From NCBI GenBank assembly GCA_963814375.1, contig CAWFCQ010000003.1, positions 103,393-167,392 of the forward strand: 64,000 bases of DNA, given 5' to 3'. Below are positions 25,537-63,076 of the stretch, piece by piece; position 1 is the first letter of the stretch; every line of letters begins with the position of its first letter. The notes beneath the pieces were generated by a model, which was given only the letters and a program-made list of their open reading frames with translations, did no database searches and had not been told where the DNA came from. The stretch comes from an uncultured Chloroflexia bacterium (GTDB taxonomy: Bacteria; Chloroflexota; Limnocylindria; QHBO01). The position numbers were made by a program, and so were the translations under genes.

Positions 25537-25540
25537 CCCG

Positions 25541-30731: not shown

Positions 30732-30735
30732 GCGG

Positions 30736-32253: not shown

Positions 32254-32447
32254 CGTGGCCCCGCCACTCGCGATATGTCGCGGCCGATGCACCAGAGGCG
32301 ATCCCGAGGTGCTGTTCCCACGATGTTTCGCGGCCCGGCACGCCTGAGCAGCACCTCCGGGTGGCGCTCAGGCATGGCAGCCGCGCGATGGATCGCGAGA
32401 ATGCAACCCGCGGACGCCTTCTGGTGAAGTGGCCGCGATCAATCGCG

Positions 32448-38169: not shown

Positions 38170-38173
38170 ACAC

Positions 38174-39397
<1,224 letters not shown>

Positions 39398-39429
39398 TCG
39401 CGCTCGCGCGCGTCCGTTACCTTCAACGG

Positions 39430-41285: not shown

Positions 41286-42025
41286 CCCGCAATGGCGGCA
41301 CCCTTGGCAAGGCTGACATGCATCTCCACACGCTCTACTCGGACGGGACGGCGTCGGTCCAGGCGCTTCTCGATCACGTCGAGCGCGCCACGGATCTCGA
41401 CCTCATCGCCGTCACCGATCACGAGCGGATCGACGGCGCGCTCCGGGCGCGGGAGATGCACGCTGCCGGCGACTATTCGTACCAGCTGGTGGTCGGCGAG
41501 GAGATCACCACCCGGCGCGGCCACGTACTCGCGCTCTTCCTCACCGAGCGCGTGCCGGCGCTGCGCCCGTTGCCCGAGACGCTCGAACGGATTCACGACC
41601 AGGGAGCGATCGCCATCGCGGCTCACCCGCTTGCGCCGCTCACGCCGTCGCTCGGGAGTGGCTCGTTGCGCTGGTCTCACGGCGCCACCGATCCCCGGCA
41701 TCACCTCGACGCGATCGAGCTCATGAATCCGTCCACCGCCGGACGAGCGCGCCGATCGGCGCGCGAGGCGCTCCATGCCGAGCTGGCCGGCCCGGCGGCG
41801 GTCGGCAACTCCGACGCCCACGTGCTCGAGGGCGTCGGCTCCGCCTGGACATGGTTCCCCGGCTCGAGCGCCGGCGACTACCGCGCCGCCATCGCGGCGG
41901 CCACCACCCGCCCCGACGGCGCCTACTGGAGCCACCTCCACAACGTCGACGTCTACCGCCGTCAGCTGAGAGCCAAGGTCAGGCACCTGCGCCATACTCT
42001 GCGGCCAACGGGAGAGTGGCGGTGA
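41282..42025 (+). CDS. PHP-family (polymerase/histidinol-phosphatase) metal-dependent phosphoesterase
   Basis: PHP motif ADMHLHTLYSDG followed by His/Asp-containing blocks (VTDHERIDG, AAHPLAP, NSDAHV). It is ATGA-coupled to both neighbours. Confidence 0.7.
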   Translation: MTRNGGTLGKADMHLHTLYSDGTASVQALLDHVERATDLDLIAVTDHERIDGALRAREMHAAGDYSYQLVVGEEITTRRGHVLALFLTERVPALRPLPETLERIHDQGAIAIAAHPLAPLTPSLGSGSLRWSHGATDPRHHLDAIELMNPSTAGRARRSAREALHAELAGPAAVGNSDAHVLEGVGSAWTWFPGSSAGDYRAAIAAATTRPDGAYWSHLHNVDVYRRQLRAKVRHLRHTLRPTGEWR

Positions 42026-43206
42026 CAACCGGAGAGTCGGCGGTGGTGGACGTGTCAGTCCCTCCAACGCCTGCCAGGCCGCCCCTACGGATCGGGATCG
42101 TGAGCCCGTACGGCTACCCCCATCCGGGCGGGGTCAACGAGCACGTTCGCTTCACCTACGAGGCGATGAGCCGGTTGGGCCACGACGTCTGGATCATCAC
42201 CAGCAAGTACGGCCGTGAGCGCGAGAGCGAGGGCCACATCATCCGCCTCGGCACCGGCTGGGCGGCGCCGGCCAACGGCAGCGTCGGCCGCGTCACACTG
42301 GGGCTACGCTTCAAGCACCAGGCACGCGAGATCCTCGAAGCGCAGCGCTTCGACATCCTCCACTTCCACGAGCCGCTTGTGCCCTTCCTGTCCCCCACCA
42401 TGCTCGACGCCAGCGATACCGTGAATATCGGCACCTTCCACGCCTTCGGCGGCTTCAGCCCCAGCTACTGGATCGGCAGCCGATTCGCACGCCACCTGGC
42501 CGACAAGCTGGACGGCCGGATCGCCGTCTCGGGGGCGGCGCGCCACTTCATCAGCCGATACTTCCCCGGCGACTATCAGATCATCCCGAACGGCGTCGAG
42601 ATCGACCGATTCACTGAGGCCGAGCCGTATGAGGAGCTGCGGGACGGCACCCTGAACATCCTCTTCGTCGGCCGGTTCGAGGAGCGCAAGGGCCTGATTC
42701 ACCTGCTCAAGGCCTACCACCGCCTCCGCAAGCGCAAGGTCGACGCGCGGCTGCTCGTCATCGGCTCCGGACCGAAGCTGCGCGAGTACCGCCGCTTCAT
42801 CGGCCTGCGCGGCATTCGCGACGTCGAGTTCCTCGGACGCGTCAGCGACGAGGAGAAGGTCCGCTATTTCGCCTCGGCCGACATCTACTGCGCGCCAAAC
42901 ACCGGCCAGGAGTCGTTCGGGATCGTGCTGCTCGAGGCGATGGCCGCCGGCGTGCCGATCGTCGCTTCGGACATCCACGGCTTCAAGCGCGTCGTCGAGC
43001 GCAACGTGCAGGGCATCCTCTTCGAGCCCCGCAACCATCGCGCGCTGGCCGCGGCGCTCTACAAGCTGGCGCGCGATCCCGATCTGCGCCACGAGATGGG
43101 CGAAGCGGGCCGCCAGCGCGCCCCCGAGTTCAGCTGGGACCGGGTCACCGAGCAGATCGTCGATTACTACTACGAGGTCCGCGAACGGGTCAGCGCGGCG
43201 TCCTGA
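42016..43206 (+). CDS. pimA: GT4 glycosyltransferase, PimA-like (phosphatidylinositol alpha-mannosyltransferase)
   Basis: The N-terminus LRIGIVSPYGYPHPGGVNEHV is typical of PimA/GT4. The C-terminal EX7E region reads FGIVLLEAMAAGVPIVASD. The GTG start overlaps the PHP gene stop. Confidence 0.75.
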   Translation: MAVTTGESAVVDVSVPPTPARPPLRIGIVSPYGYPHPGGVNEHVRFTYEAMSRLGHDVWIITSKYGRERESEGHIIRLGTGWAAPANGSVGRVTLGLRFKHQAREILEAQRFDILHFHEPLVPFLSPTMLDASDTVNIGTFHAFGGFSPSYWIGSRFARHLADKLDGRIAVSGAARHFISRYFPGDYQIIPNGVEIDRFTEAEPYEELRDGTLNILFVGRFEERKGLIHLLKAYHRLRKRKVDARLLVIGSGPKLREYRRFIGLRGIRDVEFLGRVSDEEKVRYFASADIYCAPNTGQESFGIVLLEAMAAGVPIVASDIHGFKRVVERNVQGILFEPRNHRALAAALYKLARDPDLRHEMGEAGRQRAPEFSWDRVTEQIVDYYYEVRERVSAAS

Positions 43207-43237: not shown

Positions 43238-46200
43238 CTAGCCGGATGCTCCGGCTGTCTGAACGAGGTGCGACTCTGCCTCTTCGACCCTCGAATGAAA
43301 TCCGAAGGACGCAAACAGATCCCGCGCCTCGGTCAGCACGGCCCGTGCCTCCGGCTCGCCCAGGTCCACGAGGCACCGTCCAAGGCCGAGGAGGCTGTAG
43401 GCAAGCTCCCGAACGTAGCCGAGGGCCCTCATTCGCTCCGACGCGTCCACATACATGGGCAGCGCCGCCCGACTTCCGTCAGTGATCTCCGTGACGGCCG
43501 CGCGCGCTGAGGTGGCCGCGGCCACGTGCATGTCATACGTAGGTGTGATGCCGTCGATCAGCCGCGCCGCGAGCTCCACGTCGTCCAGCGCAAGGGCCGT
43601 CCGCACCGCAATTGGAAGCGCAAGGCAGTAGAAGAGGCTCTGGCGCGCGAACGGCACGTCGGAGACGGCATTGAGCGTGCGCCTGGCCCGCTCAGGGTCC
43701 CCTGATCGGAGCCATACGAGCGCCAGCCGGCCTTGCAGGATCTCGAGGTCGAGCGATTCGACCTCGTCGATGTGAGAGGCGGCCGTCGTTGCGCGTTCCA
43801 CCGCCTCGCCGAGCTCGCCGCGCTCCGCGAGGAAATGGCCGATGCACGTCGACGCGTCAACAAGGTCGAACATGTCTCCGAGCTGCAGGGAAGCGTCGGC
43901 GTGCTCGCGCCAGATGCTGATCCCTTCGTCGAGGCGACCTCGGTCGACGAGGATCTCGGCCGAGTTGCTGCGAATCAGCTCGGCAAGGGCGCTCATGTTG
44001 CGTTTGCGCGCGAAGGCGATCCCGTCGTCTAGGGCATCCAACGTCAACGCGGGCCCGTAAATGACCCACCGCAGAAGGGCGAGGTTATTCATCATGTTGG
44101 CGGCCAGGCGCCCAGCGCCACCCGCGATGAGCGCATCGACAGCTCGATCTGCCTCATCGATCCCATCTCTCTCCCCGCTCTCGGCCCGAGCCAGACCTCG
44201 GTAGCCATGGGCCTTGAGAGGCGGATCCAGGCCGGCCGCATCGGCCAGGGCAATCGCCTGGTCGGCGGTCTCGATCGCGGTCTGCTGCGATCCAGTGAGC
44301 CACTGGCATCGCGAGAGCTCACTCAGGGCCTGCACCCGGAGCCGGGGGTCATGACCCTCGGCGAGCAGCGCCACGGCCTCCGCGGCCAGATCGAGCGGGC
44401 TACCACCACCAATGCTGCGGGACACCTCGGTCTCCAGGATGAGAGCCTCGGCGAGCAGGTCGTAGCGCCCGGCTGCGCGGAGCGCCGCCTTGGCCGCCCC
44501 CAGCGCATCCGCGGCCTCGCGCAGCCGCATCTCCTGAAACGCAGCCTCGGCCCAGCGGATGAGGAGCTCCGGCCGATCCCAGTGTCCCTCCGGCGTCAGC
44601 TCCAGCGCACGCGTGAGGCGGGCCTCGGCCTGCGAAGCGTCGAGGCCCATGGCTCGTTCGCCGGCCATGCGCAGGTAGCGCCGCGACGCGTCAGTGAGGC
44701 GCTCGGTCGCCGATGCGTCACCCGCTCCCCGCGCGAGCTCGAGCGCGGCAAGCGCGTGATGCGCGAGAAGCTCGGCCATGTCCTCCACCCGCCCGGCCGC
44801 TCGTGCCTCGATCCAACCTGCCGCCGCCTCGTGCCGCCGCGCGCGCTCGGCTCGCGGGATCTGCTGGTACGCCACGTCACGGACAAGCCCGTGCCAGAAG
44901 GCATACTCGGCCTCCCCTTCCATCGTGCTGAGCCGTGACGGGCGAACGAGCTCCTTCCGCGAGAGCTCGTGCAGATCCTGCTGCACGTCCGCCGAAGGGC
45001 GACCGGCCATCTCCGCGAGGGCTCCCGCCCAGAAGACCTTGCCGATGACCGCAGCGTCCTGGAGCAAGCTCTTGCGGACGGGTGGCAGGGTGTCGAGCCG
45101 GGCGGCGATAAGCGCCTGCACATTGTCGGGAAACTCCCATCCGACGCCGATCCGGCTGTCGGCGATGAGTCGGACAAACTCCTCAGCGTACAGGGGGTTC
45201 CCGCCTGCCCGATCGACGATCGTCTGGCGCACGTCATCAGCACTGGACGATCGCTCCAGCAGCGCGATCACGAGCTCGTTGGTCTCGCCCGTCGTCAGTG
45301 GCGCCAGATTGATGGTGTGGGCGTTTCGGATTCCGCTGGTCCAGTCGGGGTTCGCCTCGAACAGCTCCGGTCGCGTGGTGCAGACGACGAGCAGTGGGAC
45401 GCCCTCAGCCCACTCGGCGAGGTGCGCGATGAACTCGAGAAGGGCGCTATCCGCCCAGTGCAGATCCTCGAAGACGAGCACTGCCGGCGCATCGGACGCC
45501 ATGGACTCGAGGAAGGTCTGCCACGCGCTGAAGCTCTCTTCGCGAGTGGTCGCCACGCCAGAGTCGATGCCTAGCAGCGGAAGGAGCCTGGCGCGGAGGA
45601 ACGCGCGCTGCTCGACCTCGGGGAGAGATGCCTCGAGCTTTTCGGCCGCGACATCGGGGGAATCGGTCTCGAAGATGCCCGCCTGCGCCTTGACGATCTC
45701 GCCGAGCGCCCAGAACGTGATGCCGTCGCCGTATGGCAGGCAACGGCCCTGGCGCCAAGTGATGAGATCGGGCAACTCGTCAATATGGGCGAACAGCTCG
45801 GCGCACAGCCGGCTCTTGCCCGCGCCGGGCTCGCCCACCAGGGTCACGAGCTGTGTCCGCGAGTCGCGCGCGCATCGGTCGAAGAGGCTGGTGAGCATCG
45901 CCCGTTCGGCCACACGACCGACGAACGGCGAGTCGTGGGTGCGGATGAGGTCGGTGCCGAAACGAGCCCGTGCCTCGACCGCACGGAACAACTCGACCGG
46001 CTCGGCCTTGCCCTTGAGCTCGACCGGTGGAAGCGGCTCATACACGAAGACTCGCTCCGTCTGGCGCTGCGTCTCCTCCGAGACGGCGACGCCGTCGATC
46101 GGCGCGGCTCCCTGGATCCGGGATGCGGTATTGACCACGTCGCCGGCGACGAACCCCTCGCCGAGGTCGGGCCGCGCTCCGAGGGTGACGAGGGCCTCGC

Positions 46201-46621
46201 CCGTGTTGATGCCGACTCGGACTCGGAACCCGAGGGTGGCATCGGCCGCGTTCAGCTCCGCCAGGCTCTCGATGATCCGCAGGCCAGACCGCACCGCGCG
46301 CTCCGCATCATCCTCGTGGGTGACCGGTGCGCCAAAGACGGCCATGACCGCGTCGCCGATGAATTTCTCGACGGTGCCGCCGAAGTGCTCGATGTCGGCC
46401 CGCAGCCGCTCGTGGTAGGGCCGGATGCGCGCCCGCACGTCCTCCGGATCAGCGCCCTCGGACGCGGCGGTGAATCCGACGAGATCGCAGAATAGGACGG
46501 AGACGACCTTGCGCTCCTCGTGCGCGGGCGTCGCGGCCTGAGGAGCGAGAGGCGCGCCGCACCGTCCACAGAAGGTGAAGCCGTCCGGGTTCTCCCCGGC
46601 GCAGCTCGGGCACTGCACCAC
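43238..46621 (-). CDS. multidomain regulator: Zn-ribbon + class III adenylate cyclase + AAA ATPase + TPR repeats (STAND-like)
   Basis: 1127 aa. The N-terminus CPSCAGENPDGFTFCGRCG is followed by a cyclase domain (VLFCDLVGFT ... FIGDAVMAVFGAP ... RVGINTGE), a P-loop (LVGEPGAGKSRL) and a long helical TPR-like C-terminus. Confidence 0.8.
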   Translation of the reverse strand: MVQCPSCAGENPDGFTFCGRCGAPLAPQAATPAHEERKVVSVLFCDLVGFTAASEGADPEDVRARIRPYHERLRADIEHFGGTVEKFIGDAVMAVFGAPVTHEDDAERAVRSGLRIIESLAELNAADATLGFRVRVGINTGEALVTLGARPDLGEGFVAGDVVNTASRIQGAAPIDGVAVSEETQRQTERVFVYEPLPPVELKGKAEPVELFRAVEARARFGTDLIRTHDSPFVGRVAERAMLTSLFDRCARDSRTQLVTLVGEPGAGKSRLCAELFAHIDELPDLITWRQGRCLPYGDGITFWALGEIVKAQAGIFETDSPDVAAEKLEASLPEVEQRAFLRARLLPLLGIDSGVATTREESFSAWQTFLESMASDAPAVLVFEDLHWADSALLEFIAHLAEWAEGVPLLVVCTTRPELFEANPDWTSGIRNAHTINLAPLTTGETNELVIALLERSSSADDVRQTIVDRAGGNPLYAEEFVRLIADSRIGVGWEFPDNVQALIAARLDTLPPVRKSLLQDAAVIGKVFWAGALAEMAGRPSADVQQDLHELSRKELVRPSRLSTMEGEAEYAFWHGLVRDVAYQQIPRAERARRHEAAAGWIEARAAGRVEDMAELLAHHALAALELARGAGDASATERLTDASRRYLRMAGERAMGLDASQAEARLTRALELTPEGHWDRPELLIRWAEAAFQEMRLREAADALGAAKAALRAAGRYDLLAEALILETEVSRSIGGGSPLDLAAEAVALLAEGHDPRLRVQALSELSRCQWLTGSQQTAIETADQAIALADAAGLDPPLKAHGYRGLARAESGERDGIDEADRAVDALIAGGAGRLAANMMNNLALLRWVIYGPALTLDALDDGIAFARKRNMSALAELIRSNSAEILVDRGRLDEGISIWREHADASLQLGDMFDLVDASTCIGHFLAERGELGEAVERATTAASHIDEVESLDLEILQGRLALVWLRSGDPERARRTLNAVSDVPFARQSLFYCLALPIAVRTALALDDVELAARLIDGITPTYDMHVAAATSARAAVTEITDGSRAALPMYVDASERMRALGYVRELAYSLLGLGRCLVDLGEPEARAVLTEARDLFASFGFHSRVEEAESHLVQTAGASG

Positions 46622-53300: not shown

Positions 53301-56300
53301 TCAGCCGCCCTCGGGCATCGGTCCGGTGGCAACCTCGGGCTCGCGTTCGCGCAGGCGCTCCCACCAGCGGCGGCCGCTAATCGCGAACCAGCCGGCGGCG
53401 ACGGCGGCCATCACGCCCACCGCGGCCTTGAGCGCCCCCACTGACACGAGCTCCTCGCGTGACCCGGTCGGGGGGTCGGGAAACTGGAAGCCGAAGTTCC
53501 ACGGCGGCAGCGCGCGAGCCGCGTTGATATACCAGTCCGGCATCGGCAGGGCGGAGCCCAGCGGGAAGATGGCGATCCCGACGATCACCGCCAGCGCCAG
53601 GTAGCCGAGCGCCACGTCACGCCACGCGGGGCGGCGCAGCAGCTCGTCGACGATGTAGGCGACAGCGATCATCGCGAAGATCACCGCCGTGAGGTAGTGG
53701 TAGGCGAAGGTGGCGCGCTCGATCCGGATCCACGGCACGAACTGGAAGGCGAAGGCCGCCACCACCAGCACCAGCGCCGGCGAGCGGCGCTTCCAGGCCA
53801 GCACGGTGCACGCGGCGAGCGCGGGAATGCCGGCCCAGAACAGGACGGGGTTGCCACCGTTGTAGATGACCGCCAGCAGCTCGTTGTCGAACGAGCCGGA
53901 GTAGAACCAGGTCGGCTTCAGCGCCAGCGGCCAGCTCCACCACGGCGAGGCGCTGTCGTGGCCCGCGGTCAGGTTGAAGTGGTAGCCGAACATCTGCGCG
54001 TGCAGCTCGTCGATCGACCAGCCGTAGCCGGGGCCGCCGCCGATGGCCCAGTCGTGGCCGAGCTGGAGATACGGGATGTAGGTGAGCCCGTAGACGACGA
54101 GCGGGATGACGATCAGGCAGGCGCCCACCCACGGCCAGGCGAAGCCGCCCATCTCGGCGGGTCCATACCAGCGCGCGTCGGAGCGCGGGTCACGCAGCGA
54201 GCGCCACGCCCGCCACGCGACGAGCATTCCCGCGACGCCGATCATGATCCAGACCGGCCAGCCGACCTGGGCGCCGCGCGCGAGGAGCCCGAACAGCAGC
54301 TCCACCGCGCCGTTCGGTTCCCGCGCATCGGGCACCTGGTCGAACGCGATCACGAAGGCCAATCCAACCCCGGCGAAGACCGCGATGCTGGCCGGGATCG
54401 CGGTCAGCACCTCGCGGCGATCGAGGCGAATCGGCCGCACCCAGGTGATCGTCAGCGCCAGCGCGGTCAGGCCGACCATGACGAGCAGGAACGGCCACGG
54501 CGCCCCCACCCCGCCGACGACGGTCGCCAGCGCCACGAGCGCCACCAGGAACAGCCGCCCGAGGTTGGATCTCGCCAGGACGAGCACCAGGAGGCCCGCC
54601 AGGGCATAGAAGCCGACCCACTTCGTCGAGGCCGCCAGGCCGATGAGGACGCCGGTCAGCGGCAGCGCCCACCACGCGCTGCGCGCCCATCGGCCTGACC
54701 AGATCTGCCAGAAGAGCAGGTACGCGGCGACGATGAAGGTCGCCACGAAGATGTCGTTCATGCTGATCCGGCTCATGACGTAGCTCATCGGGTCGAGAGC
54801 GACGAAGGCGGCGGCCAGGATCGCGATGCGGCGGCGGCCGAACATGGTGGCGACGAGCAGGTAGACGAGCGCGACCAGCGCGACCCCGAAGAGGACGCCG
54901 GCGAGGCGCCACGCGAACGCGTTGCTGCCCGCGTCGATCGCGACGAGCGAGGCGGCGCCATCCTCGGCGGCGGTGCTGACCAGCAGGCGCCCGGCGTCGT
55001 CATCCTGCGAGGTGGTGGCGATGTCGAACGCCATGGAGAGCGGCGTGCCCGGCAGCTCGGTGGCGTCGAAGGCGGCGAGACCAATCGTCCCGTCGCCTCG
55101 CGTCTCGGCGTGCGGCTCGAGCGTCCACGTCTCGGGGACGCCCGCCGCCGTCGTGCCCGCGATGTAGGTCAGCCCGGCGACCCGCTGCTCGGCGATGAGC
55201 AGCGGCGCACCCGGCAGCGGGACGAGGCCGAGTGTGCACGGGTCGCCGCTGCAGCGACCGTTGCTGCCGTCCGCGTCCAGGAAGGCGAGGCCGCCGATCG
55301 TGGCGGGATGCTCGGCTGTCGCGGCCAGCGGACCGGTGAGGGCCAGCACCTCCTGTGAGTCGCCTCGATCGCGCACGAGGATCGGACCGATGAGAGGCGC
55401 CTCGACCGGTTCCGCCTCGTACTCCGGGCGCGGCTCCAGCGTGCTCGCATCGAGATACTCGACGGTGTTGCGCGCCGGGTCGGAGACGACCACCCAGTCC
55501 GGCTCCTCCTCCTCGACCCCCACGACGAGGCCGATGCCGCCGTACATGCCCTCGGCGCTCGCGAGGACCTCGTCGGTGGCCCGCTCGATGACGGCCACGC
55601 CGTCCGTCCCGCGCAGCAGGATCGGATCGCTCGCCTCGGACGGCACGAGTACCTGGTTCACGGTCTCCAGCCCGGACTCGATCGATGGACCGGCCGGCGG
55701 CGCGCGGCCGTCCGGCGACGCCAGCAGACCGGCGAGCTCATAGGTCTCGACCGTTCCGCTGTCAGCGCGGCCAACGAGGAGGCGGTAGGCCTCGGCGTCA
55801 TACGCCAGCGAGGCGATCGGGCCGCCGGCGCTCCAGCTCGCGACCTCCTCGCCCGTATCGGCGTCCATCGCGGTGATCGTCGCGCCCCCAGCCGCAAGGA
55901 GGGCGATGGAGCGATCGTGGCCGACGGACGCGCGCCGGGGCGCGACGGTCAGCGCGCTCGAGGCGGATTCCAGCTCGGTGCTGCCGACGACGCGGTTCGG
56001 ATCGGCGGCGACGATGCCGCCTGCGATGAGGTACTTCGCCAGCATCGGGTGGGTCCACTCGTACACGTCGCGCGTCCAGTCGTTGTTCCAGTTGGCGAGG
56101 AACTCGGCGGCCGAGCGCGCGTGGTAGACCTCGTCGAAGTGCTGGCTGCGCGGGGTGTCGAGGCGCCAGAGGCGGAAGACGAGCGCGAACACCACGAGCG
56201 CCAGCAGGGCGAGCGCGTCGCGCCGGTCGAGGCGGCGTGACGGCTCGTGCAGGTAGGCGTCGGCGGGATTCGGGGCGAGCCACACGGCACCGGCAGCCGC

Positions 56301-57860
56301 CCGTCGTGGCTCTCGGCCGGCGAGGGCGACAGGCGGCGCGGCGGCGCTCTCCGGCGCGAGCTGCATCGGCTGCTCGCGCGGCTCGAGGCTCAGCCGCAGC
56401 GCAAGCCACGCCACGACCGCCAGCGCCACGGTGATCAGCAGCGCCAGCAGCCAGATGCCGCCGTCGGTCAGCAGCGTCGAGGTGAGCAGCTCGCTCTGCG
56501 GCATCGGCGCGCCGTTGACACCGGGGTTGATGATGCGCGGCCCGGCGAACGACCAGTCCTCGGTATAGACCCAATAGATGTTCGCGAAGAACGAGACCGA
56601 CAGGGCGGCGTAGAGCCACGGCCACGCCCGTCCCGAGAAGACGAGCAGCGCCCCGAGCGCGAGCGCCGGGAAGAGGTAGCGCTCGTGGACCCGGGTCGGC
56701 AGCACGAAGAACGCGATCGCCAGCAGCAGCGAGGCGAGCACCACGCCACGCATGTCGTCGCGTCGGGCCACCAGCCATAGCGCGATCAGCGCTGCGCCGG
56801 CGAAGAGGATCGTCCCGATCGTCTGCCAGGTGAGCGCCATCCCGCCGATGGCGAACGCGACCACGGTGTCATCGCCCCAGTGCAGCGTGTCGCCGAGGCC
56901 GCTCCACGGGTTGCGCCACATGTTGAAGGCGTTGATCGAGAGGCCGGTGTAGGTGGACGCCGCCTCGGCCAGCTTGCCGATCAGGCTCCGTGAGGGATCG
57001 GCCTGGGGCAGGATCCCCAGCAGGCCGTTGGGGTCGCCTCCGGCCAACGGTACGTACAGGGTCATCCCGAAGGGCAGCATCACGAGAGTCAGGGCGACGA
57101 CGCCCGCGGCCAGTGAAGTGACCACCCGTAGCAGGTCCCGCCGCCCATCGTGCTCTGGATCCGATGAGCGCCCGGCCAGGTGCCGCTTCAGTCCGACCAG
57201 GACGACGATCGGGATGAGGAAGGCGAACTGGAACTTCACGAGCATGGCGACCACCGCGCCGACCGCGGCCGCCTCGGTCCACCCTCGCCCGAGCGCATAG
57301 ATCGTCACCAGCAGGAGAAGGGTGCCGACCGAATCGATCTGGCCCCACACCGCCGAATCGAAGATCACGCCGGGGTTGAACAGGTACAACGTGGCGGCGG
57401 CCAGCCCGAGCGTCTCGGGGCGGATGTCGAACCTGGTGCGCGAGACGAGCTCGGATCCCCATCGGCGCCCGATGATGAAGAGCATCCACGCGACGCCGAT
57501 GTCGGCGGCGATGCCGGGGATCTTGACAAGACCCGCGGTGGCGTCCTGGCCCACGACCGGCGCGAGCGCCGCACCGATCCCGCCCAGCAGCCACAGCACG
57601 TACAGGTAGCCGGGCGGATAGTCGCTGAAGTAGTCGTTGGCGTAGAAGTCGCCTGGCCCGACGCTTGCCAGGCGCTGTCCCCAGGCCGCAAAGTCGCCGA
57701 TGTCGATCGCGAAGCCGCTCATCGGCATCAACACGCCCGCAATGAAGGCGCGCAGGACGAGGCCGAGGACGAGGATTGCCGTGAGGATCGTGCCGGCGTC
57801 GAGCCGCCGAAGAGTGTCTGTCATCCCCACGCCCCGCCGGCCGACGGGGTCGCGGGTCAT
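53301..57860 (-). CDS. giant (~1500 aa) tandem GT-C membrane glycosyltransferase: ArnT/GT39-like domain + PMT-like domain with an inserted periplasmic beta-rich domain
   Basis: Domain 1 has the GT39-like signature DFYANDYFSDYPPGYLYVLW. Domain 2 opens with the PMT loop-1 motif HFDEVYHARSAAEF, then a roughly 350-aa Gly/Ala/Thr-rich extracytoplasmic insert, then 10+ TMS ending with a PMT_4TMC-like C-terminus (PWWSWPL). The start is taken at MTRDPVGRRG (57860); the ORF to 58370 overlaps the divergent gene. Confidence 0.7.
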   Translation of the reverse strand: MTRDPVGRRGVGMTDTLRRLDAGTILTAILVLGLVLRAFIAGVLMPMSGFAIDIGDFAAWGQRLASVGPGDFYANDYFSDYPPGYLYVLWLLGGIGAALAPVVGQDATAGLVKIPGIAADIGVAWMLFIIGRRWGSELVSRTRFDIRPETLGLAAATLYLFNPGVIFDSAVWGQIDSVGTLLLLVTIYALGRGWTEAAAVGAVVAMLVKFQFAFLIPIVVLVGLKRHLAGRSSDPEHDGRRDLLRVVTSLAAGVVALTLVMLPFGMTLYVPLAGGDPNGLLGILPQADPSRSLIGKLAEAASTYTGLSINAFNMWRNPWSGLGDTLHWGDDTVVAFAIGGMALTWQTIGTILFAGAALIALWLVARRDDMRGVVLASLLLAIAFFVLPTRVHERYLFPALALGALLVFSGRAWPWLYAALSVSFFANIYWVYTEDWSFAGPRIINPGVNGAPMPQSELLTSTLLTDGGIWLLALLITVALAVVAWLALRLSLEPREQPMQLAPESAAAPPVALAGREPRRAAAGAVWLAPNPADAYLHEPSRRLDRRDALALLALVVFALVFRLWRLDTPRSQHFDEVYHARSAAEFLANWNNDWTRDVYEWTHPMLAKYLIAGGIVAADPNRVVGSTELESASSALTVAPRRASVGHDRSIALLAAGGATITAMDADTGEEVASWSAGGPIASLAYDAEAYRLLVGRADSGTVETYELAGLLASPDGRAPPAGPSIESGLETVNQVLVPSEASDPILLRGTDGVAVIERATDEVLASAEGMYGGIGLVVGVEEEEPDWVVVSDPARNTVEYLDASTLEPRPEYEAEPVEAPLIGPILVRDRGDSQEVLALTGPLAATAEHPATIGGLAFLDADGSNGRCSGDPCTLGLVPLPGAPLLIAEQRVAGLTYIAGTTAAGVPETWTLEPHAETRGDGTIGLAAFDATELPGTPLSMAFDIATTSQDDDAGRLLVSTAAEDGAASLVAIDAGSNAFAWRLAGVLFGVALVALVYLLVATMFGRRRIAILAAAFVALDPMSYVMSRISMNDIFVATFIVAAYLLFWQIWSGRWARSAWWALPLTGVLIGLAASTKWVGFYALAGLLVLVLARSNLGRLFLVALVALATVVGGVGAPWPFLLVMVGLTALALTITWVRPIRLDRREVLTAIPASIAVFAGVGLAFVIAFDQVPDAREPNGAVELLFGLLARGAQVGWPVWIMIGVAGMLVAWRAWRSLRDPRSDARWYGPAEMGGFAWPWVGACLIVIPLVVYGLTYIPYLQLGHDWAIGGGPGYGWSIDELHAQMFGYHFNLTAGHDSASPWWSWPLALKPTWFYSGSFDNELLAVIYNGGNPVLFWAGIPALAACTVLAWKRRSPALVLVVAAFAFQFVPWIRIERATFAYHYLTAVIFAMIAVAYIVDELLRRPAWRDVALGYLALAVIVGIAIFPLGSALPMPDWYINAARALPPWNFGFQFPDPPTGSREELVSVGALKAAVGVMAAVAAGWFAISGRRWWERLREREPEVATGPMPEGG

Positions 57861-57965
57861 CAGCGGCGGCGCCCCCGTGGAGCGCGCCGTGTCGTATCGC
57901 ACGCCAAGGTGGCGGTGAGTATACATCGGCCCTCGGACGGCCCCGGCGCGCGCCGGGTTTCGTCC

Positions 57966-59513
57966 GTGGTGCCCTACACCGACAACGCGGTCGCCTTCGC
58001 CGCCGCGGTGGTGACCGTGGTCGCACTCGGCATCTACCTGCGCACGATGATGCCGTCGACCGGCTTCTGGGACACGGGCGAGGCCCAGACGGTGCCCGCG
58101 ACTCTCTCGATCTTCCATCCGACCGGCTTCCCGCTGTACGCCATGGCCGGCTGGCTCTGGAGCCAGCTGCCGTTCGGGGAGGTCGCATGGCGCATGAACC
58201 TGCTGTCGGTGGTGTGCGTCGCCGCCGCCTCGGGCCTCGTCGCGCTCATCACCGGCCACCTCGTCACCGAGCGCGATCGTTGGCTGCGTGGCGCCGCCGC
58301 CGCCATCGCGGGCCTCTCGTTCGCCTTCGCGGCCGAGCCGTGGGAGAACGCCACCCGGGCCGACGTGCACGCCGTCAACGTGATGTTCGTCGCCCTCATC
58401 GTCTGGCTCCTCTTTGCATGGCGGGCGGCGGTGCGCGCCGGCTCAGCGCGAGCGGACCGCTGGCTCGTCGGAGCGGCGCTCGCATTCGGCCTCGGCGTCG
58501 CCGCCCATCCCCTGGTCGGGCTGACGGCATTCGGGATCGCGGCATGGGTGCTCACGACCGATCGGCACATATGGCGGCGCTGGCGCCTCGTGGCGGCATG
58601 TGCCGGCGCCGTTGCGCTTGGGCTGGCGACCTACGGCTACATCTGGATCCGGGCCGTCATCGATCCGGCGCCCCCGCTGTTCTACGGGCATCCCGACACC
58701 TGGGAGCGGTTTCGCTACGTCGTCTTCGCCGAGCAGTTCCGCGAGCTGTTCGACGACTTCAGCTCGCCGTTTGCTCAGCTGGCGCCCAAGTGGAACGTCG
58801 CCGAGCGAGTCCTCGCGGCGCAGCTCGTCGGGCCTGGCTGGCTCGTCGCGGCGACGGGCGCGGCGGTGCTGGCCGCTCGACGCATCGAGGCATTCGCCTT
58901 CCTGGGCTTGATCGTGGTCGCGAGTGTGTTCTATGCCATGAACTTCCGCGACGGGGACATCGATCGCTACTACCTGCCCACCGTGGTCGTGGTCGCGCCC
59001 CTCATCGGCGTGGCCGTTGCGGCCGCCGCTGCTGCTGCGAGTCATGCCGTCGCCCGGCTGGCGGAACCCTCCATCAGGCTCGTCGCAACCGTGGCGACGG
59101 TGGCGGTGATCGCGCTCGGCGCCCTCCTGCCGGGCGCATCGCTCGTCACCGGCTACGCGGCGCTCGACCGGAGCTGGAACCGAGAGGCCGATCGCTGGGT
59201 GGCATCGGTCCATGCAGAGCTGCCGCCCAACTCGGTCGTGATCAGCTGGTGGAGCTACAGCACGCCCCTCTGGTACCACCGCTGGGTGCTCGGCGAGCGG
59301 CCGGACGTCACGATCATCGACGAGCGCAACATCCTCGACGACGGGTACCGTACGATGCCCAACGCGATCCGCACCTTCTTCGGCGAGCGGCCCGTGTTCG
59401 TGGTCCCGCCGAGCTGGGAGTACGAGAGCATCACCAACCAGTGGCTGACCCGAACGGTCAGCACATATTCCGGCTACACCGATCTGCTGTTCATCGAAGG
59501 GCTTCGACCGTGA
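57966..59513 (+). CDS. DUF2723-like polytopic membrane protein (putative GT-C glycosyltransferase)
   Basis: About 515 aa from a GTG (VVPYTDNAVAF). Multiple TMS with a GT-C-like arrangement and the signature FWDTGEAQTVPATLSIFHPTGFPLY. It is divergent from the giant GT-C gene. Confidence 0.55.
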   Translation: MVPYTDNAVAFAAAVVTVVALGIYLRTMMPSTGFWDTGEAQTVPATLSIFHPTGFPLYAMAGWLWSQLPFGEVAWRMNLLSVVCVAAASGLVALITGHLVTERDRWLRGAAAAIAGLSFAFAAEPWENATRADVHAVNVMFVALIVWLLFAWRAAVRAGSARADRWLVGAALAFGLGVAAHPLVGLTAFGIAAWVLTTDRHIWRRWRLVAACAGAVALGLATYGYIWIRAVIDPAPPLFYGHPDTWERFRYVVFAEQFRELFDDFSSPFAQLAPKWNVAERVLAAQLVGPGWLVAATGAAVLAARRIEAFAFLGLIVVASVFYAMNFRDGDIDRYYLPTVVVVAPLIGVAVAAAAAAASHAVARLAEPSIRLVATVATVAVIALGALLPGASLVTGYAALDRSWNREADRWVASVHAELPPNSVVISWWSYSTPLWYHRWVLGERPDVTIIDERNILDDGYRTMPNAIRTFFGERPVFVVPPSWEYESITNQWLTRTVSTYSGYTDLLFIEGLRP

Positions 59514-60265
59514 CCGAATCCGATCGCCCGCGCCTCACGTTCTTCTTCCCCGCGTTCAACGAGGAGGAGAACGTTGAGGAGACGGTGCGCCGCGCCCTGG
59601 ACGATGTGGGCTCGCTGGTGGATGGCTCGATCGAGGTCCTCGTTGTCGACGACGGATCGACCGATCGGACGCGCGAGCTCGGCGAGGCCATGGCGGCCGC
59701 GGATCCGCGCGTGCGGGTCTTCTCGCAGGAAAACCGCGGCTACGGGGGCGCGCTGAGGGCAGGGTTCGAGAACTCGACCGGCGAGCTGATCTCCTTCTCG
59801 GATGGCGACCTCCAGTTCGACCTGCGCGAGATGTCCCGCCTGCTCGATCGGCTCGCCGACGATCGGCGCCCGGTCGATGTGGTCATCGGGTATCGGCGCA
59901 AGCGCCGCGATCCGCCGCACCGGATCTTCATCGCCAAGACCTACAACGCGATCGTCTCGGTGCTGTTCGGCCTGCGGGTGCGCGACATCGACTGCGCCAT
60001 GAAGCTCTTCCGGCGCGAGGTCTTCGATGGCCTGCCGCTCACCACCGACTCACCGTTCCTCTCGGCGGAGCTGCTCATCAAGCTCAACGCGCGACGAGAG
60101 CGCATCGCCCAGGTAGGGGTCACCCACTATCCCCGCGCCGCGGGGACGAACACCGGCGCCTCGTTCCGCAAGATCGTGCGCACCTTCCGCGACATCGGGA
60201 AGCTGCGTCTCGCGCTATGGACCCGGCGCTCCGAGGTGCTCGGGACGCCACGCAAGCGAGGCTAG
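59510..60265 (+). CDS. GT2 polyprenol-phosphate mannose synthase-like (Ppm1/DPM1-like)
   Basis: GT2 motifs (FFPAFNEEENV, VVDDGSTDRT, DGD) with DPM1-like collinearity. The GTG start overlaps the upstream stop (GTGA). Confidence 0.75.
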   Translation: MTESDRPRLTFFFPAFNEEENVEETVRRALDDVGSLVDGSIEVLVVDDGSTDRTRELGEAMAAADPRVRVFSQENRGYGGALRAGFENSTGELISFSDGDLQFDLREMSRLLDRLADDRRPVDVVIGYRRKRRDPPHRIFIAKTYNAIVSVLFGLRVRDIDCAMKLFRREVFDGLPLTTDSPFLSAELLIKLNARRERIAQVGVTHYPRAAGTNTGASFRKIVRTFRDIGKLRLALWTRRSEVLGTPRKRG

Positions 60266-60850: not shown

Positions 60851-63076
60851 CTACTCGAGCACGACGCGCAGCACACCGTCCGCGGTGAGCAGGTACGCGA
60901 CGGGCGGACCGTCGGCGACCGAGGTCACGGCGAGGCCGCGCACGTCGTCCAGCGTTTGCGCCCCGGCCCCGGCGGCCGGCGCCAGCCACTGCCGCACGAA
61001 GGCGCCGTCGGCGCGCTGGAAGCCGATGAGCCGGCCGTTCGCGGCGTCGTAGACGTACAGGAACTCGCGATCGCCGACCGTGGCGCCATCGAGGAGCCGG
61101 TAGTCGAGAGCGGGTCGCACGGCGGCATCGGGAGGGCGGTCGAGGGAGTAGTCGGCCTGGTCTGCCGGCGTGCCGAAGTCGACCCGGCTGACGGTGTCGC
61201 GGTGCAGCAGCCAGGCGTTCACGTCGACGCGCAGGTCGCGCGCGAGGCTCGGATCGAGGTCGGGCGCCTCGTTGAGGAATGGCTCCGGTGGCTCCGGATA
61301 GGTGACCGGGATGACGGCCGGTGGCGACCAGCGCAGGACTTGCCCCGTAGCCGCATCGACAACATAGAGGTTGAAGATCTCGAGCGGCGGCCGGTGCTGA
61401 AGCGCGCCGATCAGCGTCGTCTCGGGGCTCAGCCCCTCGACCCCGTTCAGCTCCATCCGCCGTGGAACCCTCTCGGTGAGGTCGATGCGCCAGGCGACTC
61501 GCTGGCGGTCGATGACGACGACGTCCGTGGCGGCGGTCGCGATGAGCCACGGTTCGCCGGGGGTCGCGCCCGACTCGAGCTCCTGCCCGGCCCGGTAGAT
61601 GATCGACACCGATCCGTCCGCCGGGTCGACGCGCAGCACCCGTCCGCGCCCCGACTCGGTGATCCACAGCGAGCCGTCGCTGGCGGCCACCATCTCGGCC
61701 GGCTCGATGTCGTCGTACGCCGCCGCGAGGTCCGCGACGACGATCGGCGCATCGAGCCGCGCGACGCGGTAGAGGGCGTCGAGGCGGCGGTCCACTCGCC
61801 CGCGCAGGCCGGCAAGCTGATCATCGGCGACGCCCACCCCGGCGGCGCGCTCGATCGCTGCGTGGGCCTCCGCCAGCAGCTCCGCGGCGTGCTCCGGGTC
61901 GCGGTCTACGAGATCGGCGCCGTCGACGCGCTCCTCCACCCGCCCGACGAGGTCGACCGCCTCGGCGATCGCCTCACGGGCGGTCGTGGCCCGCGGGATC
62001 GCCTCGGTCGGCTGGACCGACGGCAGGGCCGCCACCGTCGCGCCAACGGCAACCAATCCGGCCACCACCACCATGCCCGCCAGCCCGAGGCGGCGCCGGC
62101 GCCCCTGCTCTCGTTCCGCCGTGCGCGGGATGCTGCGTGGATATTCGGGCCTTCGGCGTGGAACGAACGCCAGCAGCCAGGAGAGGAGGGTCAGCACGCC
62201 GCGCCCGAAGGCGGCCTTCGCCTCCTCCGCCGCATCGCCGGCATGGTGCAGTCCGCGGCCGATCGCATCGGCCAAAGGCACCGGGCTCTGGTCGGGCAGC
62301 CCGGCGAACGGCTCCGCCGGATGGACGGGCTCGAGCTGGTGGACGGTGTCGGTCGGGGCGAGCTCGGCCACCTCGATGGCGAGCAGGCCGTCGGAGCCGG
62401 TGCCGCCCCGGATGGCGAACACCTGCTGGAGATGCTCGATCGCCTGGGATGGGCGCATCTCACCGAGGGACCGCTTCAGCTCGTCCACCCCCACCAGCTG
62501 GGCGAAGTGGCGGCTGACCAGGCCGATTCGGTCGCCACCCGCCAGCCCTCCCTCCCACGTGAACGGATCAACCTCGAGCGCCTCGCCCAGGGTCGCCGCG
62601 ACGCGCCGCTGGCGCACGCGGGGGTCCTCCTCGACCACCGGGGGTGGTGGTGGGACCTCGTACATGCGGCCGTCGCGAACGACCACCGCGCTGGCCGGGC
62701 CGAGCTTGGCGACGTGGGCCTCCCGCCCGCGCACGACGACCGCGACGATGCTCACGCCGGATCGCTTCGGAATGCCGAGCCTGCGGCGCTGGTGATAGAG
62801 GCGCCGGTTGGCTCCCCGCAGCGCCTTGGCCAGGGCCACCAGGACGCCGGCCGAGAGGTCGTAGTAATAGTCGTGGCGCAGGGCGTCGAGCGCCTCGCGG
62901 GCGGCGGCGGCGAGCGCCGGGGACCCACCCGTCAGCTGCGCGACCAGGAAGAGGCTGCCCTTGGTGCGGGCCTGCGCCCCGACGGCCGGCTCATGAAACG
63001 CGATGACGTCGAAGGATCCCGGCGCCCGCTCGTCGGCGGACGGCACCCCGATCCTGGTCGCGAAGCGGTTGCTCAT
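60851..63076 (-). CDS. hypothetical membrane protein (N-terminal cytoplasmic domain, one TMS, large extracytoplasmic domain)
   Basis: 741-aa ORF with a TM helix (RRLGLAGMVVVAGLVAVGATVAAL) and no firm motif. Confidence 0.45.
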   Translation of the reverse strand: MSNRFATRIGVPSADERAPGSFDVIAFHEPAVGAQARTKGSLFLVAQLTGGSPALAAAAREALDALRHDYYYDLSAGVLVALAKALRGANRRLYHQRRRLGIPKRSGVSIVAVVVRGREAHVAKLGPASAVVVRDGRMYEVPPPPPVVEEDPRVRQRRVAATLGEALEVDPFTWEGGLAGGDRIGLVSRHFAQLVGVDELKRSLGEMRPSQAIEHLQQVFAIRGGTGSDGLLAIEVAELAPTDTVHQLEPVHPAEPFAGLPDQSPVPLADAIGRGLHHAGDAAEEAKAAFGRGVLTLLSWLLAFVPRRRPEYPRSIPRTAEREQGRRRRLGLAGMVVVAGLVAVGATVAALPSVQPTEAIPRATTAREAIAEAVDLVGRVEERVDGADLVDRDPEHAAELLAEAHAAIERAAGVGVADDQLAGLRGRVDRRLDALYRVARLDAPIVVADLAAAYDDIEPAEMVAASDGSLWITESGRGRVLRVDPADGSVSIIYRAGQELESGATPGEPWLIATAATDVVVIDRQRVAWRIDLTERVPRRMELNGVEGLSPETTLIGALQHRPPLEIFNLYVVDAATGQVLRWSPPAVIPVTYPEPPEPFLNEAPDLDPSLARDLRVDVNAWLLHRDTVSRVDFGTPADQADYSLDRPPDAAVRPALDYRLLDGATVGDREFLYVYDAANGRLIGFQRADGAFVRQWLAPAAGAGAQTLDDVRGLAVTSVADGPPVAYLLTADGVLRVVLE

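Follow-up and report, generated by a model that had tools for sequence, protein, structure and literature searches.

A conserved three-gene set of Limnocylindria encodes a giant double GT-C protein and a predicted polyprenyl-phosphate-mannose-dependent mannosylation module

The locus lies in a DNA stretch of 64,000 nucleotides (the window) from an uncultured soil or freshwater bacterium of the Chloroflexota, class Limnocylindria. Positions 53301-60265 are filled by three real genes: a giant gene coding for 1,519 aa on the minus strand and, on the plus strand, a DUF2723 gene and a GT2 gene. As shown in Table 1, the giant gene is divergent from the other two, as an earlier note on this DNA had stated. 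The same note had described the GT2 and DUF2723 genes as GTGA-coupled, naming GT2 first. The overlap was found at 59510-59513, where the GTG start of the GT2 gene overlaps the TGA stop of the DUF2723 gene, and the order is DUF2723 first and GT2 second. In this conserved set, one enzyme is predicted to charge a lipid carrier with a sugar, probably mannose; the charged carrier would be used by three membrane-embedded transferase modules, two of which are fused in the giant protein.

Table 1. Features of the locus, in coordinates of the window
Feature	Position	Strand	Remarks
Giant double GT-C gene	53301..57860	-	1,519 aa plus stop; single uninterrupted ORF
N-terminal GT-C domain of giant	56370..57860	-	~497 aa, probably 12 TM helices; AF2, Foldseek
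Arg- and Pro-rich linker of giant, between both GT-C domains	56235..56369	-	~45 aa
PMT (GT39-like) domain of giant	53304..56234	-	Pfam, yeast Pmt1 alignment, AF2
Pfam PMT within giant	54573-54926	-	above gathering threshold
Pfam PMT_4TMC within giant	53574-54008	-	above gathering threshold
DE motif D576/E577 of PMT domain	56130-56135	-	numbering of the 1,519-aa protein
Predicted seven-bladed beta-propeller insert in PMT domain	54930..56003	-	~357 aa; AF2 and Foldseek
Divergent intergenic region	57861..57965	.	105 bp, carries a conserved element
DUF2723/TMEM260-like GT-C gene	57966..59513	+	515 aa; PF11028
GT2 candidate polyprenyl-phosphate-sugar synthase	59510..60265	+	251 aa; PF00535
GT2 DxD motif D98-G-D100	59801-59809	+	PDB alignment

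The start of the giant that is kept among homologs is the ATG at 57860 (MTRDPVGRRGVG...), which yields 1,519 aa, while an alternative internal ATG at 57824 would yield 1,507 aa; the N-terminus MTRxPVGRRGVG is conserved in homologs. More than 120 independent full-length homologs (63-98% identity, about 1,500-1,570 aa), all from uncultured MAGs, were drawn from ENA, JGI, NCBI and Logan assemblies, some of them on contigs of 0.6-2.2 Mb. The architecture is retained in relatives at 30-38% identity, the fusion recurs in many clusters of at most 50% identity, and GC by codon position is uniform along the ORF (GC3 0.90). The homologs, the recurrent fusion and the even GC pattern led us to reject two genes joined by mis-assembly or a frameshift, an artefact whose probability we regard as negligible. 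The protein of roughly 1500 aa fusing two GT-C domains, as described in the earlier note, is genuine and conserved. Its linker is poorly conserved in sequence across homologs, and has an AF2 pLDDT below 50; a count of the helices and the positive-inside rule would place it in the cytoplasm.

The C-terminal half of the giant matched the Pfam models PMT (PF02366; 67.2 bits, cutoff 22.7) and PMT_4TMC (PF16192; 66 bits, cutoff 32.4), and both were matched by 17 of 17 diverse homologs. Yeast Pmt1 (6p25) has D77/E78 in external loop 1 after TM1 and R138 at the start of TM2, and its alignment with the PMT domain fell into three pieces bracketing an insertion. HFDEVYH (D576/E577) aligns with VVFDEVHF of 6p25 and is followed, in this order, by HPMLAK, the insertion of ~357 aa and a TM helix whose Arg, R985 (AWRLAG), occupies the position of R138. 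Residues D576, E577, H604, P605, K609 and R985 were invariant in 17 diverse homologs, and the AF2 model of this half had a pLDDT of 79.8 and a pTM of 0.81. With both Pfam models above threshold and the DE motif and the Arg in place, the PMT-like assignment stands. No MIR beta-trefoil was matched in the PMT domain, the stretch from PMT to PMT_4TMC being made up of TM helices only; bacterial PMTs are not known to carry a MIR domain either.

Both the Pmt1 alignment and the AF2 model place the insertion in external loop 1, between the HPMLAK juxtamembrane helix and TM2, in agreement with the extracytoplasmic insertion of roughly 350 aa after a DE-type motif that had been proposed. In the half-model it is all-beta over E93-E445, mostly with pLDDT >85, and its best Foldseek matches were WD40 propellers, YncE, Lp49 and BamB (target-normalised TM-scores of 0.5-0.75). 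The inserts of distant family members match PQQ_2/BamB and other propeller Pfam models. The insertion is therefore predicted with confidence to be a seven-bladed beta-propeller and, as an insert of external loop 1, would be extracytoplasmic. A standalone PMT-plus-propeller relative (P0123) occurs in an unrelated gene context.

For the N-terminal half, Pfam returned only a weak GT-C match, to PIG-U (29.4 bits, cutoff 24.5), which was partial (profile positions 80-223 of 378), and Alg6_Alg8 was matched in 4 of 17 homologs. GT87 was not matched in Pfam, and a PDB search with the profile of the domain gave no sequence match at E<=10. The AF2 model (pLDDT 80.8, pTM 0.84) was closest in Foldseek against the PDB to PIG-U (8imx_U, E 7e-5), a non-enzyme, followed by PIG-M (9wno_A, 8e-5), PimE (9dm7_A, 1.7e-4) and ALG3 (9s6r_A, 1.5e-3), with TM-scores of 0.49-0.66 (query- and target-normalised). 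Model and Pfam match together support a GT-C fold. The ArnT/GT39-like nature ascribed to this domain by the earlier note had to be abandoned: ArnT (GT83; 5ezm) came only at rank 12 (E 9e-3, TM-score 0.36) and Pmt4 at rank 20, and residues 1-500 of the giant matched neither PMT nor PMT_2 in Pfam. Invariant positions in 10-17 diverse homologs include D53, K113, K209, Q211 and R390-x-H392-E393-R394-Y395. D53 (codon 57702-57704) is a candidate catalytic Asp that the AF2 model places where TM1 meets JM1, its equivalence to PimE D58 being by position only. In the model, K209/Q211 and RxHERY appear to face the outer leaflet, and they persist in homologs of 31-56% identity. An invariant Asp together with K209/Q211 and RxHERY is the pattern that would be expected for an active GT-C.

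The DUF2723 protein matched PF11028 well above threshold (107 bits, cutoff 24.2, E 1e-30), and its GT-C core, as predicted, aligned with human TMEM260 (9rql), a protein O-mannosyltransferase for IPT domains (E 1e-13, residues 14-459 against 31-471, covering every TM helix and reaching the beginning of the luminal Rossmann-like domain). The donor-binding/catalytic residues of TMEM260 are D52, H67, R264, Y267 and R355 (roles: bioRxiv 10.64898/2026.03.17.711096). By direct alignment D36 corresponds to D52, H51 to H67 and the Arg of DIDRYY to R355, while R264/Y267 were matched (FRELF against LREEY) only after a 4-residue gap had been shifted by hand, with Phe in place of Y267. The hydropathy profile gave about 10-11 TM helices and a soluble C-terminal domain of ~125 aa. 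Unlike TMEM260 (707 aa), the protein of 515 aa has no TPR matched by Pfam, and the alignment ends at TMEM260 residue 471. The gene was found in 37 of the 53 loci with enough upstream flank and is an optional member of the module. For bacterial relatives of TMEM260, only "distant homologs in bacteria" are mentioned (PMC10214176), and no characterised one was found in the literature searched.

The GT2 matched PF00535 (E 3e-29) and, in the PDB, ArnC (74 bits, E 1e-19, residues 9-229 against 10-224, DGDLQ aligned with DADLQ), the archaeal DPMS PfDPMS (5mlz; 50 bits, E 3e-12) and GtrB (E 6e-8), the similarity covering the catalytic and interface-helix region. Its best NCBIfam matches were all polyprenyl-P glycosyltransferases, all far below their cutoffs; the haloarchaeal Dol-P-hexose transferase scored 74 bits and PgfS 71 bits, neither family cutoff being reached. 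Unlike ArnC, GtrB and PfDPMS, the enzyme has no C-terminal TM anchor, and no TM helix was detected by hydropathy (maximum 19-residue Kyte-Doolittle 1.46), a TM-less form like that of human DPM1 and the catalytic domain of M. tuberculosis Ppm1. From the Ppm1/DPM1-like label given earlier, the polyprenyl-phosphate-sugar synthase type can be kept, but not the Ppm1/DPM1 identity or mannose. Since the GT2 scores higher with ArnC than with DPMS and reaches no NCBIfam cutoff, it is only the GT-C partners that point to mannose.

In 50 of 53 loci a divergent GT2 gene lay no more than 4 kb from the giant gene, and this held for giants with as little as 30-35% identity. More distant giants, of 1,753 and 2,092 aa, have the same block around them. 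Contrary to what had been supposed, the module is not self-contained: DUF2723 is optional, and a PIM-type operon (PimA, two PatA-like acyltransferases, PIP synthase and Ino1) neighbours it across Limnocylindria. This operon is convergent to the giant gene. At least 20 distant loci have it no more than ~1 kb away, and it directly abuts the giant gene in the tier of 30-35% identity as well as in the P0133 and P0171 loci. In close loci and in the window it lies ~6-10 kb away, with an ABC-2 transporter, GNATs and PspC/LiaF in between, plus a cyclase in the window. The window carries PIP-synthase-, Ino1-, PatA- and PimA-like genes, its GT4 matching PimA at E 2e-57 and the next-best family at 5e-22; no PimB-like second GT4 was identified within the window. 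No flippase gene was evident in the module, no GtrA-type or ArnT gene in the block and no Ara4N or UDP-sugar modification genes nearby. In distant loci the same block holds an extra, weakly GT87-like membrane protein. Because the whole region, near dnaN-recF-DciA, is syntenic throughout the class, part of the linkage may reflect common descent and not function. The conserved supercluster with the PIM-type operon makes a glycolipid acceptor a serious alternative for at least the N-terminal domain.

The characterised relatives of all three GT-C modules (PMT, TMEM260, PIG-M, PimE, ALG3) use Dol-P-Man or polyprenyl-P-Man, and in the PMT and TMEM260 families the only characterised members are protein O-mannosyltransferases. 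What the analysis shows is the structure of the genes, their domain families and folds, the conservation of catalytic residues and that of the linkage; from these we infer which sugar and acceptors are used, how the proteins sit in the membrane and what the propeller does, and we consider it somewhat probable that the whole is an extracytoplasmic mannosylation module dependent on a polyprenyl-phosphate-mannose donor. On the cytoplasmic side of the membrane, the soluble GT2 would load polyprenyl phosphate with a hexose, for which mannose from GDP-mannose is the likeliest candidate. The charged carrier would then be flipped by a flippase to the outer face, where three GT-C active sites would use it. 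Through the DE motif of external loop 1, the PMT domain would O-mannosylate Ser/Thr residues of exported proteins, and the propeller over its active site might select or hold the acceptor, comparable to the MIR, TPR or Rossmann/TPR domains of eukaryotic PMT, TMTC and TMEM260. The TMEM260-like protein would be a second, optional protein O-mannosyltransferase with another set of clients. The PIG-M/PimE-like N-terminal domain could either add mannose to a PI-anchored glycolipid that the PimA/PatA/PIP-synthase/Ino1 operon nearby would supply, or extend the first O-mannose. The protein or glycan O-mannosylation system with two or three transferases and a shared donor, as envisaged in the earlier note, is supported in part, by the three GT-C modules and their conserved catalytic residues; what it missed is a possible glycolipid acceptor. 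A bolder version, which we put forward only tentatively, sees the 23-TM giant as a single-polypeptide "mannosylation hub" coupling PI-glycolipid elongation by the N-terminal domain to propeller-guided protein O-mannosylation by the PMT domain, with the TM-less PPM synthase feeding it and the TMEM260 homolog supplementing it; Limnocylindria would then make mycobacteria-like PI-mannosides or lipomannan.

Other acceptors would change this picture. If the module served proteins alone, the N-terminal domain would elongate the O-mannose laid by PMT to di- or oligomannose and the PIM operon would be nearby by synteny only. For two of the three modules, protein O-mannosylation is the only activity known in the family, enzymes of consecutive steps are often fused, and in the close tier unrelated genes separate the PIM operon from the giant. 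This reading is unlikely, as PimE and PIG-M, the enzymatic fold neighbours of the N-terminal domain, act on PI-anchored glycolipids, and the operon abuts the giant in the more distant loci named above. Conversely, the whole module, PMT-like domain and propeller included, might build a PIM/lipomannan-like PI-anchored glycan at the outer face of the membrane, with no protein being glycosylated. We know of no GT39 or TMEM260 family member with a lipid acceptor, and the PMT domain has kept the DE motif as well as residues on the acceptor side that are typical of protein PMTs; P0123, with its PMT and propeller standing alone in an unrelated context, also argues against it. The conserved supercluster with the PIM-type genes, the weak GT87-like protein of the distant blocks and the extension of PIMs in mycobacteria by polyprenyl-P-Man-dependent GT-C enzymes (PMC12041525) speak for such a glycan, which we nonetheless hold to be quite unlikely.

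The donor and the role of the N-terminal domain can be read differently as well. The GT2 might make polyprenyl-P-glucose, -GlcNAc or an aminopentose derivative, and the GT-C modules would then decorate a lipid or a cell-wall polymer, in the manner of the three-component GtrB/GT-C or ArnC/ArnT systems. ArnC is the closest GT2 sequence, the haloarchaeal Dol-P-hexose transferase and PgfS score equally well, and three-component systems of GT2, flippase and GT-C are widespread (PMC11127046). However, every GT-C partner belongs to a mannose-using family or fold, and the lack of ArnT or GtrA-type genes in the block and of Ara4N or UDP-sugar modification genes nearby also makes another sugar decidedly unlikely. 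The N-terminal domain, for its part, could be a non-catalytic, PIG-U-like lipid-binding or scaffold domain that serves only to anchor or supply the PMT domain, or to bring in the TM-less GT2. PIG-U is both its best fold match and its sole Pfam match, and the GT2 lacks its own membrane anchor, but retention of the Asp, K209/Q211 and RxHERY in divergent homologs renders this very unlikely.

Compared with known systems, the module resembles actinobacterial Ppm1 and Pmt (M. tuberculosis Rv2051c/Rv1002c; S. coelicolor), where a GT2 donor synthase serves a MIR-less GT39 Ser/Thr transferase outside, and shares with Pmt the DE motif and the PMT plus PMT_4TMC architecture (topology background PMC12331936). 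It differs from them in that the genes are clustered, the PMT domain is fused behind a second GT-C, the predicted propeller sits in external loop 1, the score against the actinobacterial Pmt equivalog (NCBIfam NF058602) is 40.1 bits with a cutoff of 800, and the GT2 is a bare catalytic domain of 251 aa. The genes of the window recall the mycobacterial PIM pathway (PgsA1, PimA, PatA and PPM-dependent PimE), although in a Chloroflexota and not an actinobacterial host and with no PimB-like gene identified in the window. The N-terminal domain resembles PimE in its modelled fold and in the Asp at the JM1 position, but not in detectable sequence similarity to PimE/GT87. Eukaryotic PMT1/2/4 (MIR) and TMTC (TPR) likewise carry a soluble extracytoplasmic domain, presumably for acceptor handling, on a GT-C O-mannosyltransferase core; in eukaryotic PMT, however, the MIR beta-trefoil is placed between TM7 and TM8, in contrast to the predicted seven-bladed propeller in loop 1 after the DE motif. 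As in GtrA/GtrB/GtrC and ArnC/ArnT, a GT2 of polyprenyl-P-sugar synthase type is linked to the GT-C transferases that would consume its product, but there is no GtrA-like flippase gene in the block and, unlike GtrC/ArnT, the GT-C partners come from mannosyltransferase families.

To our knowledge, bacterial protein O-mannosylation and PIM/lipomannan synthesis have been studied almost only in Actinobacteria, and both gene sets stand side by side in this abundant, uncultured soil and freshwater class of Chloroflexota. In the literature searched we found no description of two GT-C glycosyltransferases fused in one polypeptide, of a beta-propeller within the catalytic loop 1 of a PMT, or of translational coupling between a bacterial TMEM260 homolog and a lipid-sugar synthase. 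The locus offers a concrete, testable context for bacterial DUF2723 function and a natural experiment on how O-mannosyltransferases gain acceptor-binding domains, and it hints that PI-mannoside envelopes may reach beyond Actinobacteria. Were the hub to exist, bacterial DUF2723 would gain its first functional context, a double GT-C enzyme would be on record for the first time, and a PIM-type envelope would be known outside Actinobacteria.

A simple sigma-70 scan of the intergenic region between the giant and DUF2723 genes (57861-57965) gave no match. The region carries the element GGTGAGTATACAT at about 57912-57925, and its translated stretch AKVAVSIH is kept in two loci (L001 and L002) while the flanks diverge, which indicates conservation at the DNA level and not of a coding sequence.

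The region 53301-60265 contains three real genes, which are listed in the table together with the other features discussed here. Window GC is about 70%, GC3 amounts to 0.90 across the giant open reading frame (ORF), and the codon-position GC pattern backs the called frames. The start of the giant protein was placed at the ATG at 57860, since the N-terminus MTRxPVGRRGVG is kept in its homologs. As the earlier note had described, the GT2 gene, a candidate polyprenyl-phosphate-sugar synthase, is coupled to the DUF2723 (TMEM260-like) gene by a GTGA (59510-59513), where the TGA stop of the latter is overlapped by the GTG start of the former, and both genes on the plus strand diverge from the giant on the minus strand.

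Coordinates of the mannosylation module and of neighbouring features in the window
Feature	Position	Strand	Remarks
PIM-type operon	37447-43206	+	six genes
PIP-synthase-like CDP-alcohol transferase	in 37447-43206	+	153 bits, cutoff 170
Inositol-3-phosphate synthase	in 37447-43206	+	562 bits
Two acyltransferases	in 37447-43206	+	best match PIM acyltransferase PatA, 138 and 135 bits
PHP phosphoesterase	in 37447-43206	+	possible PIP phosphatase
PimA-like GT4	in 37447-43206	+	PimA (PDB 2gej) E 2e-57; next family 5e-22
Adenylate/guanylate cyclase + AAA_16 protein	43238-46621	-	1,127 aa; between PimA-like gene and GNAT genes
Giant ORF	ends 53301, start ATG 57860	-	uninterrupted; 1,519 aa
DUF2723/TMEM260-like gene	57966-59513	+	515 aa; Pfam TMEM260-like/DUF2723 E 1e-30
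GT2 gene	59510-60265	+	251 aa; Glycos_transf_2 E 3e-29
741-aa protein	60851-63076	-	in nearly all related loci; no Pfam family; weak PP2C-like N-terminus; one TM helix

By word-indexed search, the giant has more than 120 full-length homologs (63-98% identity, 1,483-1,573 aa) in ENA, JGI, NCBI and Logan assemblies, those with a name being annotated as 'phospholipid carrier-dependent glycosyltransferase' of Candidatus Limnocylindria or Chloroflexota. In an exhaustive representative search, 482 clusters matched the giant at E<=1e-30, and a local phmmer run revealed a common layout in many clusters of <=50% identity (1,300-2,400 aa), with the N-domain at about 1-460, the first transmembrane helix (TM1) and DE loop of the PMT domain at about 530-680, an insert and then the PMT core. 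A scan of GTDB species gave 507 confirmed relatives, and the best 80 of these, nearly all Limnocylindria, separate into one tier at about 50-75% identity and another at about 30-35%. Since homologs, clusters and GTDB relatives carry the same full-length giant, the objection that two genes had been joined by an assembly error fails; an assembly chimera or a frameshift was ruled out by the homologs, the shared cluster layout and the codon-position GC. One homolog, P0123 (L084:1649-4552; 967 aa), consists of a PMT domain with propeller: it shares 47% identity with the C-terminal half of the giant, and the N-terminal GT-C domain is missing. As it is genuinely standalone, the two halves of the giant are separable modules. 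The neighbours of P0123 (EAL, RecJ) are unrelated to the module. A second homolog, P0122, was rejected as an unfused PMT-plus-propeller form, being partial at a contig end.

In the C-terminal half, the assignment to the PMT family was borne out by Pfam (PMT, 67 bits; PMT_4TMC, 66 bits). In the AF2 model of this half (pLDDT 79.8, pTM 0.81), TM1 is followed in turn by two juxtamembrane helices (HFDEVYH and HPMLAK), by an insertion of some 350 residues that is all beta and was modelled mostly at pLDDT >85, and by TM2 and the rest. The beta domain is a seven-bladed propeller, with WD40 domains, YncE, Lp49 and BamB as top Foldseek matches. With HMMER, three pieces of the PMT half (534-602, 976-1119 and 1273-1422) could be aligned with yeast Pmt1 (6p25), the D/E of the giant falling on D77/E78 and an Arg on the position of R138. 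Because the flanks align piecewise around it, the insertion was placed in external loop 1. This loop is lumenal or periplasmic in PMTs. The side on which it lies is also the subject of PMT topology work (PMC12331936). The inserts of distant family members have no sequence similarity to that of the window giant; several nonetheless match PQQ_2/BamB or other propeller Pfam models. Against the actinobacterial Pmt model, the PMT domain scored 40 bits (cutoff 800).

The N-terminal half had been described as an ArnT/GT39-like domain, and this assignment had to be abandoned. ArnT ranked only twelfth in Foldseek (TM-score 0.36) and no such Pfam match was obtained, the only one in this half being a weak match to PIG-U (29 bits). 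The folds nearest to the AF2 model (pLDDT 80.8, pTM 0.84) were PIG-U (8imx_U), GPI mannosyltransferase I PIG-M (9wno), PimE (9dm7) and ALG3 (9s6r). A profile of ten diverse N-domains gave no sequence match in the PDB at E<=10, and the domain is therefore regarded as a sequence-orphan GT-C family. Invariant in it are D53 at the TM1/JM1 boundary, K113, K209, Q211 and an R-x-H-E-R-Y motif. Compared by pattern and not by superposition of models, these residues resemble the D58, K195 and H321/H322 set of PimE (PMC12041525). From helix counting and the positive-inside rule, we infer that the N-domain crosses the membrane 12 times, with both ends inside, and that the PMT domain, with 11 TM helices, comes after a cytoplasmic linker rich in Arg and Pro.

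Residues 14-459 of the DUF2723 protein aligned with human TMEM260 (9rql; E 1e-13), without the TPR lobe. D52, H67 and R355 of TMEM260, whose residue roles are taken from a cryo-EM preprint (bioRxiv 10.64898/2026.03.17.711096), are kept; after a 4-residue gap was shifted by hand, R264 is kept too and Y267 is replaced by Phe. The GT2 carries a DGD motif and lacks any predicted TM helix that could anchor it; its alignments with ArnC (E 1e-19), P. furiosus DPMS (E 3e-12) and GtrB (E 6e-8) cover both the catalytic and the interface-helix region. Among NCBIfam models, its best matches are polyprenyl-phosphate glycosyltransferases without exception; their sugar specificities differ, and all score far under their cutoffs. 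Reading the sugar from NCBIfam or PDB scores was rejected, as these do not discriminate. Judged by its sequence, the GT2 is a predicted lipid-carrier-charging enzyme, and mannose is not readable from it alone. Of the earlier proposal of a Ppm1/DPM1-like donor synthase, the polyprenyl-phosphate GT2 type stands on the three alignments, while mannose cannot be told from the GT2, to which ArnC is closer than DPMS.

Linkage was counted in the 53 loci whose sequence extends upstream of the giant by 3.6 kb or more. A divergent GT2 lies within 4 kb in 50 of them, and DUF2723 stands between the two genes in 37; in about 10 loci without DUF2723, the GT2 is found 119-411 bp from the giant start. At least 20 loci of the 30-35% tier have a PimA-PHP-PatA-PatA-Ino1-PIPS operon convergent to the giant and no more than about 1 kb away; in the close tier the gap is up to 6-7 kb, and the operon also accompanies giants that are more distant (1,753 and 2,092 aa). 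The module is therefore not the self-contained one that had been supposed: its conserved core is the GT2 plus the giant, with DUF2723 as an accessory and the PI-mannoside (PIM) operon as a persistent neighbour. The presence of PI-mannoside genes in a Chloroflexota genome is noteworthy in itself.

All characterised relatives of the three GT-C modules use Dol-P-Man or polyprenyl-P-Man, and for this reason the GT2 is proposed to make polyprenyl-P-mannose; a donor with another sugar would agree with the GT2 being nearer to ArnC than to DPMS. As for the acceptor, a module acting on proteins alone would fit the PMT and TMEM260 relatives, which are protein O-mannosyltransferases, and one acting on glycolipid alone would fit PimE and PIG-M, which mannosylate PI-anchored glycolipids. 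Because the relatives split in this way, we lean, with modest confidence, towards a mixed model. In it, the PMT domain would O-mannosylate exported proteins, with the propeller as an acceptor-handling platform, the TMEM260-like enzyme would likewise O-mannosylate exported proteins, and the N-domain would either mannosylate a PI-glycolipid made by the neighbouring operon or else extend an O-glycan.

A non-catalytic N-domain would be in line with PIG-U, its top fold match, being a non-enzyme; the invariant residues of the PimE-like pattern belong to the same domain. Besides the nearness of the GT2 to ArnC and of the N-domain fold to PIG-U, weak points of the mixed model are the distance between the PMT domain and actinobacterial Pmt, the lack of a flippase gene in the module, and the synteny that extends over all of the origin-proximal region in the class, owing to which part of the linkage may be inherited and not selected. 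That the Chloroflexota have a PIM-type envelope and a dual-acceptor 'mannosylation hub' is a far-reaching but rather doubtful extension.

The Limnocylindria module follows the same logic as Ppm1 and Pmt of Actinobacteria, here with a PIM pathway alongside. Its differences are that the giant fuses two GT-C domains, that the PPM synthase candidate is without a TM anchor, that a bacterial TMEM260 homolog is present, and that the propeller sits in catalytic loop 1, the MIR domain of eukaryotic PMTs being in a later one. Our literature searches returned no description in bacteria of the GT-C fusion, the loop-1 propeller, an anchorless PPM synthase or a TMEM260 homolog, and nothing relevant on O-mannosyltransferases or O-mannosylation, PIMs or PIP synthase in Chloroflexi. 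These four features are new for bacteria in the searched literature, the underlying Ppm1 plus Pmt and PIM logic being already known in Actinobacteria.

DUF2723 is missing in about one quarter of otherwise syntenic loci (L004, L007, L012, L014, L017, L022, L045, L054, L057 and others). In L051-L083 and L086 (30-38% tier), DUF2723 and the giant are separated by the gene of an additional multi-pass membrane protein (490-611 aa, e.g. L083:6492-7964). This protein is a possible fourth GT-C, and one copy matches Pfam GT87 weakly (E 0.006, below threshold). It has no counterpart in the window, where no paralogs of it or of the module were found elsewhere either. The distant 2,012-aa family member P0177 has a different neighbourhood, with an inositol-monophosphatase-family gene directly after it (L085:8670-9470), which is another inositol link. 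Five loci with the same syntenic block (L021, L028, L053, L058 and L060; 32-55% identity) come from MAGs labelled Methylomirabilota, Zixiibacteriota, Patescibacteria or Steroidobacteraceae, for which binning contamination seems more likely than a real distribution.

A simple sigma-70 scan of the 105-bp divergent intergenic region found no promoter or terminator. The element GGTGAGTATACAT within it (57912-57925) is kept in the related loci L001 and L002 while its flanks diverge, and may serve the divergent genes as a -10-like promoter or as an operator. On the GT2 side, the window holds genes for a bifunctional nuclease, the 741-aa membrane protein, DciA and recF, all on the minus strand. The C-terminal region of the 741-aa protein looks like a beta-propeller, and this protein could be a client or partner of the mannosylation module. 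Downstream of the giant are PspC and LiaF-like genes, an ABC-2 transporter, GNAT acetyltransferases and the cyclase/AAA protein; the cyclase gene looks like a lineage-specific insertion, because it is absent at that position in L002 and other related loci. Further away, at 16984-33989, first-position GC is distinctly lower and GC3 is higher in a complex I (nuo) operon, after which come genes for trehalose-6-phosphate synthase (GT20), a sortase and an MFS transporter, all of them without relation to the module.
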